Shown here in pieces: positions 2,581 to 63,605 of a stretch of DNA of 64,000 nt; position 1 is the first letter of the stretch, and every line of letters begins with the position of its first letter. The position numbers and the translations under genes were made by a program. The DNA is taken from assembly GCA_964016885.1 (NCBI GenBank), contig OZ024761.1:23436001-23500000 (forward strand), read 5' to 3'. The notes beneath the pieces were generated by a model. That model had not been told where the DNA came from. It saw only the letters and a program-made list of their open reading frames with translations, and did no database searches. The stretch comes from Eledone cirrhosa. Lineage: Eukaryota.

Positions 2581-2958
2581 CAATGGCGTCAGCTCATATT
2601 TAATTCTTCGAAAAAGCGCCGTGAATAACCGCCAGCACTGTGGTTGAGTCTACCTGAACAAAGCTGGTTTGACTAGACACAAACAAAGTCATATCAGTAG
2701 ACCTCATGTAGATTATGATCTGAAAACGGTGTAAGGAATGTAACAAGGAATGTGTTAGCATGGGAGGTCTTAAAAGACACATGAGTACACACCACAGACA
2801 GAACAAAGCAATGGAAAGTCCCGGAGGAGCCGACAGTTGCCATGTATGTGCCAGAGGGTGCAAGTCTTTGGCTGGTTTAAAGAGCCACATTCGTGCTCCA
2901 CATTTTTGAGCATTTTATCGGGCGACGGCAATGCTCGAACACGAGCTTGCAGCCATTA
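2581..2958 (+). mobile_element. RTE-clade LINE 3' remnant with two C2H2-type zinc fingers
   Basis: Translates QWRQLI..., CKECNKECVSMGGLKRHMSTH and CHVCARGCKSLAGLKSHIRA. The tail CTCGAACACGAGCTTGCAGCCAT is shared with about 7045 and 58930 (minus). Confidence 0.7.
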
Positions 2959-2970
2959 TGTATATATATA

Positions 2971-3158
2971 AGGGCGGTGAATTGGCAGTATCGGTAGAGG
3001 GTTGGACGCCATGCTTTCTAGCATAGTTACGTCCCTTTACAGTCTGAGTTCAAATCCCGCCGAGGTTAACTTTGCCTTTCATCCTTACGGGGTCGATAAA
3101 ATAAAGTACCAGTAATGTACTGGGTAATTGCTGGCCTTGTGCCTAAAGTAGAAACAAT

Positions 3159-3704: not shown

Positions 3705-3945
3705 ATCCCGAGTTCAATCGGGGGTAACCACAGTAAGTAAGGTACTCAATATTTCTAAATATAGTTTTTAAAGAATCCCTCTTCTTTAAACATATCAACC
3801 AATGACCTCCACCCATCCCAATCACCACCCTTTCCTACCACCATAAAAGATATAAATACCCCCATATTACTCGGACAGCTGCTTTCCTGATGTTTTCTCC
3901 CGAATGAAACAGTTCTAGTCCTGTTGAAGCCTTTCTATATTAAAT
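3705..3945 (+). mobile_element. Family A Penelope-like fragment: inverted tail followed by a pLTR with a degenerate hammerhead
   Basis: Inverted tail CCCGAGTTCAATCGGGGGTAACCACAGTAAGTAAGGTACTCAATA, then CTGATGT..GAATGAAACAGTTCTAGTCCTGT; the body is homologous to 63425-63600 (minus). Confidence 0.75.
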
Positions 3946-4669: not shown

Positions 4670-5690
4670 ATAATCAAGGGTTGGAAATGGTTTACTAATG
4701 TAACTAACTTTCTCATTATTAAGCTGGTGTTTGGAACATAACCTAATAAAGGATCTCAAGAATTGAAAATGGTTTAGTAATGTAACTAACTTTCTCATTA
4801 TTAAGCTGGTGTTTGGTACATAACTTAACAAAGGAGCTCAAGAATTAAAAATGGCTTAGTGATATAACTTTCTCCTTATTAAGCTGGGGTTTGGAATATA
4901 ACTTAACAAAGGATCTCAAGAATTGAAAATGGCTTAGTGATATAACTTTCTCATTATTAAGCTGGGGTTTGGTACATAACTTAACAAAGGAGCTCAAGAA
5001 TTAAAAATGGCTTAGTGATATAACTTTCTCCTTATTAAGCTGGGGTTTGGAATATAACTTAACAAAGGATCTCAAGAATTAAAAATGGCTTAGTGATATA
5101 ACTTTCTCATTATTAAGCTGGGTTTGGTACATAACTTAACAAAGGAGCTCAAGAATTAAAAATGGCTTAGTGATATAACTTTCTCATTATTAAGCTGGGG
5201 TTTGGTACATAACTTAACAAAGGAGCTCAAGAATTAAAAATGGCTTAGTGATATAACTTTCTCATTATTAAGCTGGGGTTTGGTACATAACTTAACAAAG
5301 GAGCTCAAGAATTAAAAATGGCTTAGTGATATAACTTTCTCATTATTAAGCTGGGGTTTGGTACATAACTTAACAAAGGAGCTCAAGAATTAAAAATGGC
5401 TTAGTGATATAACTTTCTCATTATTAAGCTGGGGTTTGGTACATAACTTAACAAAGGAGCTCAAGAATTAAAAATGGCTTAGTGATATAACTTTCTCATT
5501 ATTAAGCTGGGGTTTGGTACATAACTTAACAAAGGAGCTCAAGAATTAAAAATGGCTTAGTGATATAACTTTCTCCTTATTAAGCTGGGGTTTGGAATAT
5601 AACTTAACAAAGGATCTCAAGAATTGAAAATGGCTTAGTGATATAACTTTCTCATTATTAAGCTGGGGTTTGGAATATAACTTAACAAAA
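4670..5690. repeat. Minisatellite, 78-bp unit, about 13 copies
   Basis: AGGAGCTC recurs at 5221 and 5299; near-identical units. Confidence 0.95.
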
Positions 5691-5816: not shown

Positions 5817-5882
5817 TATTTTATCTGATGAAAGCGCACCATAATTTGCCTTGGTTACCCTTGAAATATATATAATAAAATA
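5817..5882 (+). ncRNA. Minimal type I hammerhead ribozyme, family C (element about 5755-5925)
   Basis: TATTTTAT-CTGATGA-stem II-GAAA-TATATA-TA-ATAAAATA: 8-bp stem I and a palindromic loop III. Confidence 0.75.
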
Positions 5883-6059: not shown

Positions 6060-6280
6060 GTGTATCCCGGGTTCAATCGGGGATAACCCCAGTAAGCAAG
6101 GTACTCAATACATAGTAGAGTATGTAATGTTTAATATACAAATGGCTTCTACAGGACTACAACTGTTTCATTCAAAGGAAATCATTAGGGAAGCTCTGAT
6201 GATTTCCTGGTGATTTCTTTCGATGATTTCTTTCGAATGAAACAGTTATTGTCCTGTAGGGGCCATATGTACATTAAACA
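6060..6280. mobile_element. Family A fold-back element (diverged)
   Basis: Inverted tail plus inverted and forward hammerhead arms; the centre has reiterated TGATTTC(T/C) units. Confidence 0.75.
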
Positions 6281-49767: not shown

Positions 49768-50843
<1,076 letters not shown>

Positions 50844-50848
<5 letters not shown>

Positions 50849-50896
50849 TTCCTGATGATTTCTCAAGAATGAAACAGTTCTAGACCTGTAGAATCT

Positions 50897-50898
<2 letters not shown>
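50844..50898 (+). ncRNA. Complete type I hammerhead ribozyme, family A, solitary
   Basis: TGAGATTC-CTGATGA-TTTC-TCAA-GAAT-GAA-ACAG..CTGT-A-GAATCTCA; 8-bp stem I and a GUA site. Confidence 0.9.
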
Positions 50899-50971
<73 letters not shown>

Positions 50972-51296
50972 CATTTAATAATACCTTGATGACATTCTCA
51001 ATAATGAATTAAGCCAGAAGTTTCCTCTTATCAATTAGCCCTTCGCTGTATTTCACTTTACATATATTTCAATGAATTACAATAAATTAGTTCAATATTT
51101 TCTAAAACCATTTTCAAGAATGTTTCCATTAAATTGCGGTGCCTTTGTTTTACTTACGTGACTGTCTATCTGGGGACACCTATTTGGATTTCTACTTAGC
51201 TATAATTGTCCTTCTTGTCCGAAGGGAGACACATTGGTAAATATACATAGATGCCAATAGACAAGCTGACATAAATATAGACAAATTGGTAGGTCA

Positions 51297-51347
<51 letters not shown>

Positions 51348-55111: not shown

Positions 55112-55238
55112 GCTTTCCTGTTGATTTCCTTCGAATGAAACAGTTCTAGTCCTGTAGAAGACATTTCTATATTAAATATTTATACTCTGCAATGTATTGA
55201 GTACCTTACTTACTGTGGTTACCCCCGATTGAACCCGG
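55112..55238 (+). mobile_element. Family A pLTR plus tail (core mutated to CTGTTGA)
   Basis: GAATGAAACAGTTCTAGTCCTGTAG..TATTGAGTACCTTACTTACTGTGGTTACCCCCGATTGAACCCGG. Confidence 0.8.
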
Positions 55239-55244
55239 CACACG

Positions 55245-55275
<31 letters not shown>

Positions 55276-58925: not shown

Positions 58926-59505
58926 TATGGTGGCTGCCAACTCGTTTTCGAGTACGGCCACTACTTTATATCCATGTAGGAGAACCCCTACCGATGCGCT
59001 GAACGAGTGTGACTTTTTACTCCAGCCAGCGACTTGAAAACTCTGGTACAAACACTACACTTGTGACAATTATTGACACATGGTGCTGGGCCCATGGTAC
59101 CATGTGACGACAAGTGCAGAGAGATCTCCAGATATAAAGCAATGCCTGTGCCGTGAAGCTTTTATAGTGAGCAAAGGCACTGCACAAAGCCAGTCCCACT
59201 CTGCACAAAGCCAGTCCCACTCTGCACAAAGCCAGTCCCACTCTCTTGACCAAGATGATATTTACCAAAAAGAAGAACAAGTCAACATCATTGGATACCA
59301 TCAGGGTTGCAGGTGTTATATCAGAGTTTCCCTTCTCCTAGAATTCTGCCTTGACAAAGGCTAAGGGGTCATCTCTCCCGGTGATTCTGGATGGCCTTTG
59401 CCCTTTGACAGGTTTTCTTTTTAGTCCTGCAGGATGTCCAAAGTCACCCTCCTCACCAAGAAACCTTGGTGGGGTTGCCAGTTTAATCGTCAACGACTCG
59501 ACCAT
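58926..59505 (-). mobile_element. Non-autonomous RTE-derived element (5' region joined to 3' tail)
   Basis: The 5' part matches 6385-6480; the 3' end ACTCGAAAACGAGTTGGCAGCCACC matches the RTE tail at 2934-2956; internal 21-bp repeat x3. Confidence 0.65.
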
Positions 59506-63424: not shown

Positions 63425-63605
63425 ATACAGGACTAGAACTGTTTCATTCGGGAGAAATCATCAGGAATCCGACTGTCCAAGTAATATGGTGGTATTTATA
63501 CCTTTTCTGGTGGTAGGAGAGGGTGGTGATTGGGATGGGTGGAGGTCATTGGTTGATGGATTTAAAGAAAAAGGAATACTTTTATAACTGTATTTACAGT
63601 AACAG
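63425..63605 (-). mobile_element. Family A pLTR with hammerhead core
   Basis: Minus GGATTC-CTGATGA-TTTCTCCCGAAT-GAAACAG..CTGTA, truncated right after the GUA site; body homologous to 3770-3925. Confidence 0.8.

Follow-up and report, generated by a model that had tools for sequence, protein, structure and literature searches.

The window analysed here, a stretch of 64,000 nucleotides from Eledone cirrhosa (contig OZ024761.1), carries a type I hammerhead ribozyme motif on the forward strand at positions 50844–50898, enclosed by microsatellites. Its parts, read from the sequence with the cut site placed by the hammerhead consensus, are given below; element positions are numbered from the base that opens stem I in the parent element (+1).

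49770–50844, no strand: left flank and likely insertion target, a (TA)n-type microsatellite of about 1.07 kb with scattered CA/TG units
50844–50845, +: two bases absent from the parent pLTR and apparently derived from the insertion junction, lengthening stem I from 6 to 8 bp
50846–50898, +: pLTR positions +1 to +53 of a probable Hydra-clade Penelope-like element, forming a type I hammerhead
50844–50851 with 50891–50898, +: stem I, 8 bp
50846–50851, +: 5' arm of stem I as in the parent (6 bp), beginning at the putative transcription start
50852–50858, +: catalytic core C3–A9, intact
50859–50870, +: U10.1-U11.1 mismatch (U10.1 at 50859, U11.1 at 50870), stem II and variable loop II
50860–50862 with 50867–50869, +: stem II, 3 bp, with a 4-nt loop
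50871–50873, +: core G12-A13-A14
50874–50889, +: stem III, 4 bp (50874–50877 with 50886–50889), and a near-palindromic 8-nt loop III
50888–50890, +: GUA triplet, with the predicted cut 3' of A17 (50890), at element +45/+46
50891–50898, +: 3' arm of stem I, the 3' limit of the copy being element +53
50899–50969, no strand: right flank, (CA)n and then (TA)n

Three helices surround the core, with stem I open, and the conserved positions C3–A9, G12–A14 and A15.1–U16.1 are all present together with an NUH cleavage site. The pair 10.1-11.1 is not Watson-Crick, a U-U standing there instead; this is a published natural variant and does not exclude the motif from the hammerhead class. It is the best-tolerated mismatch at that pair according to PMC3088659, and in File S2 of PMC8557442, as compared by eye, T stands opposite T in 14 of the 25 Hydra families. 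The original prediction had described a hammerhead with an intact core, a 4-bp stem III, a GUA cleavage site and an 8-bp stem I, lying between (TA)n on the left and (CA)n on the right, and the sequence bears out all of these points. Conservation of the T-T at the base of stem II throughout the family, also predicted, agrees with 252 of 266 and 114 of 116 copies, in sets that were selected partly by matching on the T-T positions themselves. No Rfam hammerhead match was obtained with the whole window at the gathering score or with 50500–51300 at E≤10, and the Rfam miRNA matches in the window were rejected as microsatellite noise.

The motif had been regarded as stand-alone; it proved to be a fragment of a repeat. 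The window contains ten matching hammerheads, the contiguous stretch of 214 kb contains 19, and the nearest family sibling is 4.3 kb away. Family copies in the window include the following, the ends of the first six being approximate.

3706–3945, +: older subfamily, preceded by CCAAT- and TATA-like boxes and bearing an inverted piece of tail
6066–6272, no strand: head-to-head pair, older and decayed
24719–24914, no strand: head-to-head pair, long arm on the minus strand and short arm on the plus strand
30403–30601, no strand: head-to-head pair
55112–55245, +: older subfamily, hammerhead and tail, with a core change at A6
63426–63600, −: promoter-bearing copy, truncated shortly after the cleavage site
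40330–40352, −: 5' half of the hammerhead only, joined to an (AAC)n-type repeat

A genome of 3.0 Gb in 1,796 contigs was searched. With 50844–50898 as query there were 1,894 first-look candidates, 40 of which were scored. Exact matches to a 31-base piece of the family hammerhead, from which 50844–50898 departs by one base, numbered 16,398 genome-wide (9,189 and 7,209 by strand), and those to a 37-base piece downstream of the hammerhead 7,723 (3,859 and 3,864); reversed controls of the two pieces gave 0 matches each. The hammerhead count is thus skewed between strands, and the tail count is not. The excess over the control, together with the double-sided changes in stem I described below, argues that the hammerhead at 50844–50898 is not a chance occurrence. 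This genome may contain a tandem array in which about 2,000 units consist of the hammerhead only. On contig C306 (about 26,490–26,800), L004/L005 hold tandem 168-bp units of hammerhead plus tail with (TA)n between them, a retrozyme-like arrangement, and in L006, L009, L176, L177 and L212 the segment between short hammerhead inverted repeats appears flipped relative to the tail.

The window is rich in other repeats. Further hammerhead-core repeat families occur at 5825, 30843 (+) and 47852 (−); at 17318 (+)/17202 (−) and 63730 (+); at 40562 (+); and at 30167 (−); several have a short palindromic stem III and one forms a head-to-head pair. A weak Rfam tRNA match (31.1 bits) at 21879–21936 (−) is probably the head of a tRNA-derived SINE, and similar heads seem present at 2980–3100 and 7020 (−). 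A 78-bp tandem array of 12.6 copies at 95% identity occupies 4705–5689, with no hammerhead core inside it.

Most relatives of 50844–50898 run about 85 nt beyond the hammerhead and end in (TA)n, and some have CCAAT- and TATA-like boxes upstream. Two extend past the usual end, one of them into a reading frame, and tracing that frame led to full elements. Among eight loci examined at 10 kb, six hold an intact 713-aa ORF and the other two carry a stop at 369 aa. In seven of the eight the hammerhead lies 175 nt upstream of the ATG, and in seven a second hammerhead follows 4.6–5.5 kb downstream; the downstream pLTR repeat terminates at about +136, in (TA)n. The span from hammerhead to hammerhead is about 4.8–5.7 kb, owing to a microsatellite-like spacer. 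This spacer, (TA/TG)n-like and roughly 2–3 kb long, lies between the ORF stop and the 3' pLTR in L094–L097, L100 and L101, and intact elements may themselves disperse simple repeats in this repeat-rich genome. Against the pLTR of the intact copy L096 (+1 to +53), 50 of the 53 bases of 50846–50898 are identical. Two of the differences are in loop II and represent a common variant (20 of 266 copies), while the third, T>A at 50884 in loop III, is rare (3 of 266).

The single ORF combines RT with a GIY-YIG endonuclease at the C terminus. By eye it contains RWR (K to R), DKT, the RT core, CxCX5C, a GIY-YIG-like stretch, CxxC and CxH, with CCHH absent, and it resembles Hydra-1_Obim at motif level in the PMC8557442 supplement. 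Pfam gave a weak GIY-YIG match (E 0.067), among Atlas neighbours a share of the members has HTH_animal, GIY-YIG or RVT_1, and a PDB sequence search returned nothing below E 0.13. The marks of the Hydra clade given in PMC8557442 are RWK, DKT in place of DKG, a CxCX5C linker, CxxC, CxH and no CCHH; a size below 3 kb is a general tendency there, not diagnostic, and the parent element exceeds it. Like members of that clade, the element has a pLTR with hammerhead at both ends, an inverted 5'-truncated copy and an optional tail, and it inserts into (TA)n. From its ORF motifs the family is probably a young member of the Hydra-clade Penelope-like elements (PLEs), a judgement made jointly with the origin proposed below for 50844–50898. 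An RT frame on the minus strand of L040 was rejected as the parent, its RT and linker belonging to a second Hydra-like PLE family; that family has its own hammerhead and adjoins a pLTR of the family studied here.

The ends of family copies proved regular. Among 100 mapped hammerhead places, those listed first for contig C1, the 3' end fell at +60 to +67 in 52 and at +131 to +141 in 40, with three inside the ORF, three at or before +58 and two elsewhere; 92 of the 97 ends outside the ORF meet (TA)n. On the 5' side the upstream pLTR is kept in 41, a partner copy is present in 54, and five are partnerless, three of these (three of the 100 places sampled) being hammerhead-only copies. Head-to-head pairs consist of a long and a short arm in 22 of 24 cases. 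Folding alone, without a control, gives a weak hairpin behind each of the two 3' ends (−3.6 and −5.1 kcal/mol).

For 5' ends, 70 of 100 listed tail places were surveyed, 25 from hammerhead-selected sequence having been set aside and 5 others left out. Between −1 and +10 lie 29 of the 70, or 26 once three alignment breaks in promoter-bearing older copies are subtracted. Five others lie at −40 to −2, nine at +11 to +40, two at +41 to +50 and five beyond +50, and the remaining 20 are further upstream, many of them alignment breaks. This is a marked hot spot, with 26 of 47 ends within 12 of 124 positions (p 7e-15). A start at the cut site, +46, was seen once in 70, with stem I microhomology to the partner; the scarcity of such starts could alternatively mean that cut RNA is degraded or unused as template. 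In 45 of 48 promoter copies, from both subfamilies, the first T of the TATA box stands 35–36 nt before C3, which places +1 29–30 nt downstream of that T. Such a distance behind the TATA box is the usual spacing to a transcription start.

From these 5' and 3' ends and the TATA spacing we infer an RNA that starts at stem I, reverse transcription that starts internally, and a template that is uncut. Transcription would begin with stem I's first base, about 30 nt downstream of the TATA box in the pLTR, and the endonuclease would nick a (TA)n target. Reverse transcription would then begin inside the RNA at about +60 to +67 or +136 and run to the 5' end of the uncut transcript. The usual product would be two arms, one long and one short, joined head to head, and a single short arm would yield copies like 50844–50898, its two extra stem I pairs having been added at the insertion junction. 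The start in the parent is deduced from DNA ends only, and the internal, TATA-less promoter of D. virilis Penelope (PMC2377424) counts against a start at +1. Published in vitro results on Poseidon_Ac agree with the scheme: that element has two internal RT starts that define the tail and uses uncut RNA as its main template, its hammerhead cutting only with protein (PMC11167929). Inverted pLTRs with a one-sided tail have long been known (PMC8557442; PMC3846280), and the latter source explains head-to-head pairs by antisense self-priming, an alternative route here.

The two extra pairs of stem I bear on the same question. The parent stem I has 6 bp, and all three bases upstream of +1 differ from those at 50844–50898; the 8-bp stem I of the original prediction therefore holds for this copy and fails as a feature of the family. 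Among copies ending at 0/+1 (n = 21, the first listed places of contig C1, two rows sharing one junction), position 0 holds G in 8 and the native C in another 8, while T occurs in 3 and A in the other 2. G thus makes up 8 of the 13 non-native bases (p 0.035), and 50844–50898 is one of these eight. T precedes the extra G in seven of the eight; one of the extra-G copies has a 10-nt snap-back and one has G alone. Snap-back junctions are also found in L006, L008 and L009, in a set biased to the 50844–50898 query. An extra G at the 5' junctions of full-length L1 has been attributed to the cap (PMC11702581). Bases 50844–50845 could accordingly be either a T of the target followed by a G copied from the cap, or a 1–3 nt snap-back of the cDNA on stem I; by either route, as far as the sequence allows, the two pairs come from the junction.

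We consider it likely that 50844–50898 is a doubly clipped pLTR copy, made by reverse transcription of the first few dozen RNA bases into (TA)n and probably inert. Its 3' end at +53, running into (CA)n, is atypical, and later erosion or trimming is thus possible. A minority reading, improbable though still worth some weight, gives the copy the same origin by another route, a longer pLTR insertion having been trimmed later by microsatellite slippage or deletion; besides the unusual +53 end, the continuation of the last two element bases by the (CA)n run and the unstable 1-kb array on the left suit it. Random trimming would not leave a 5' end exactly at the family hot spot with G, the commonest non-native base (8 of 13), and L012 ends likewise, at about +54.

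Predicted folding gives the ribozyme little prominence. The 55-mer folds no better than shuffled sequences (z-score −0.67; 44 of 200 shuffles fold as well), and its hammerhead fold has −8.7 kcal/mol against −11.1 for the best fold. The hammerhead share of its ensemble is about 0.001 at 37°C, falling to 0.0002 at 20°C, compared with 0.007 for the parent 55-mer, values that are weak evidence in a model that omits the non-canonical core and was used without an active-ribozyme control. The stem III hairpin is predicted at −1.4 kcal/mol and the homodimer at −15.6 (−12.8 in the parent), and the change at 50884 is predicted to favour a competing hairpin and also to strengthen the loop III homodimer. 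Among 116 copies matched without either loop, which are kin and include 15 from the older subfamily, non-majority letters make up 1.6% of loop III and 22.6% of loop II; by this comparison loop III looks constrained, like a dimer palindrome. At the stem I pair +3/+49, 42 of 83 promoter copies have A-T and 32 have C-G, a double-sided change between the subfamilies; no such change was seen among copies in stem II or stem III. The changes in stem I suggest that the fold is selected in source elements, not in inserted copies.

According to published work, hammerheads of fungal PLEs that possess a large helix III cleave as monomers (PMC4209133), and minimal animal ones cut poorly, as dimers (PMC4209133; PMC6765202). 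The 4-bp stem III with its 8-nt loop can fold within one molecule, and its length exceeds that of stem III in published relatives, which speaks for the monomer. The parent ribozyme is probably a weak, conditional cutter assisted by dimer formation or by protein. The copy at 50844–50898 has neither promoter nor partner, so that its RNA would arise solely through read-through, and we propose that its cutting is slow, if it occurs at all. Its designation as the best candidate for an active monomer finds little favour in the predicted fold, which is rare (about 0.1% against 0.7% in the parent), or in the palindromic loop III, weak as this evidence is.

Two further readings would give the copy a function or a separate means of spread. 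In the one, an active monomeric ribozyme in a plus-strand intron would cut a host pre-mRNA. The intact core and the 8-bp stem I would be present in any read-through RNA, stem III has 4 bp and a loop big enough for a monomer, the U-U mismatch is the one best tolerated (PMC3088659), and a related copy, L010, lies near an apparent coding exon. The fold share and shuffle score just given, the former below the parent's, argue against it, as does the sole rare change, at 50884, which favours misfolding or dimer pairing; moreover, the copy is one of thousands of near-identical ones with no sign of a special role. Nor did 146 repeat-masked frames of at least 45 aa in the window yield a convincing host exon, a scan that shorter exons would escape. 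That scan produced two C2H2-like fragments and two sub-threshold matches, and the RNA evidence, three contig runs over the right flank, gave no information on start, end or strand. We regard a host-intron ribozyme at this position as very unlikely. The zinc-finger-like fragments lie at 2724–2906 (+) and 58991–59161 (−), and the frame of the latter recurs in L063, which suggests a repeat, not a host gene. In L010 (+, about 130–520) a membrane-transporter-like frame precedes a same-strand family hammerhead by about 1 kb, making that hammerhead a candidate for a true sense-intronic copy.

The other reading makes 50844–50898 a monomer belonging to a non-autonomous family, retrozyme- or SINE-like, which spreads through its own small or circular RNA with PLE protein. 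ORF-bearing copies (3 of 100 reach the ORF) are far fewer than the short ones of 136 nt, the tandem 168-bp units of L004/L005 would fit, and animal retrozymes have been described as PLE-derived (bioRxiv 10.64898/2026.07.22.740005). According to the same source, however, an active retrozyme needs two tandem hammerheads, and the copy has one hammerhead and no tail; the short copies lack a promoter, are mostly head-to-head, and share their ends with the autonomous pLTR. This, too, is a slim prospect, scarcely better than the last. The doubly clipped insertion is the reading we retain.

On a wider view, which we offer tentatively and think rather less probable than its negation, the hammerhead would be the first structure of a capped transcript, its long palindromic loop III would switch it between monomer and dimer, and the long-plus-short head-to-head insertions meeting at the start, thousands in number, would record two-ended priming on uncut RNA. 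If so, the family would be a natural read-out for completion of PLE integration and for ribozyme firing, with the 713-aa protein as a bench substrate. The single copy at 50844–50898 has little weight, being one of thousands of fragments from a known clade, and the family is the more useful object. Its youth, intact ORFs and very regular insertion ends allow a direct test of two open points about Penelope: the role of the hammerhead, and the origin of the inverted pLTR with a one-sided tail. If cutting of read-through RNA occurred in only a small fraction of the >16,000 copies, a depletion of sense copies within introns would be expected.

Much of what is seen here is already published: the clade and the hammerheads it carries, the targeting of (TA)n, the inverted pairs, the single motifs left by truncated elements, and the T-T pair. 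The family itself was not found in the literature searched or in the portion of the PMC8557442 supplement covered; two short family strings had 0 matches in that supplement, a weak negative, since long sequences there are cut and line-wrapped.

Non-LTR retrozymes (bioRxiv 10.64898/2026.07.22.740005) are likewise short, non-coding and PLE-derived, with type I hammerheads and dispersed monomers, but they are defined by tandem units with at least two complete hammerheads; here there is a single 53-nt piece from a mostly head-to-head family in which tandem units were seen only in L004/L005. Minimal dimeric PLE hammerheads (PMC4209133; PMC6765202) share the widespread single motifs from truncated PLEs, the opposite-strand pairs and a palindromic helix III/loop 3, but their helix III is absent or very short and they keep G10.1-C11.1, in contrast to the 4 bp, 8-nt loop and U-U found here. 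Poseidon_Ac (PAc) of Anolis (PMC11167929) resembles our family in vitro in its two RT starts with an optional tail, its AT-rich target and its uncut template. It belongs to another clade, and its hammerhead overlaps the start codon and RT starts inside the ORF, whereas here both 3' ends precede the ATG, with a tail of about 70 nt.

The closest likeness is to the Hydra clade (PMC8557442), including Hydra-1_Obim of Octopus bimaculoides: a single ORF with RT and C-terminal GIY-YIG, RW(K/R), DKT and CxCX5C, insertion into (TA)n, a type I pLTR hammerhead, and an inverted 5'-truncated copy with a one-sided tail. The unit here is about 5 kb, with its long microsatellite-like spacer, against generally <3 kb in that clade, and the hammerhead differs from that of Hydra-1_Obim, which makes this another family. 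Stem II, only 3 bp and AU-rich, is also unlike published Hydra hammerheads. The one real difference from these, judged on sequence, is loop III, which has 8 nt here and 1–3 nt in all 25 Hydra families of File S2.
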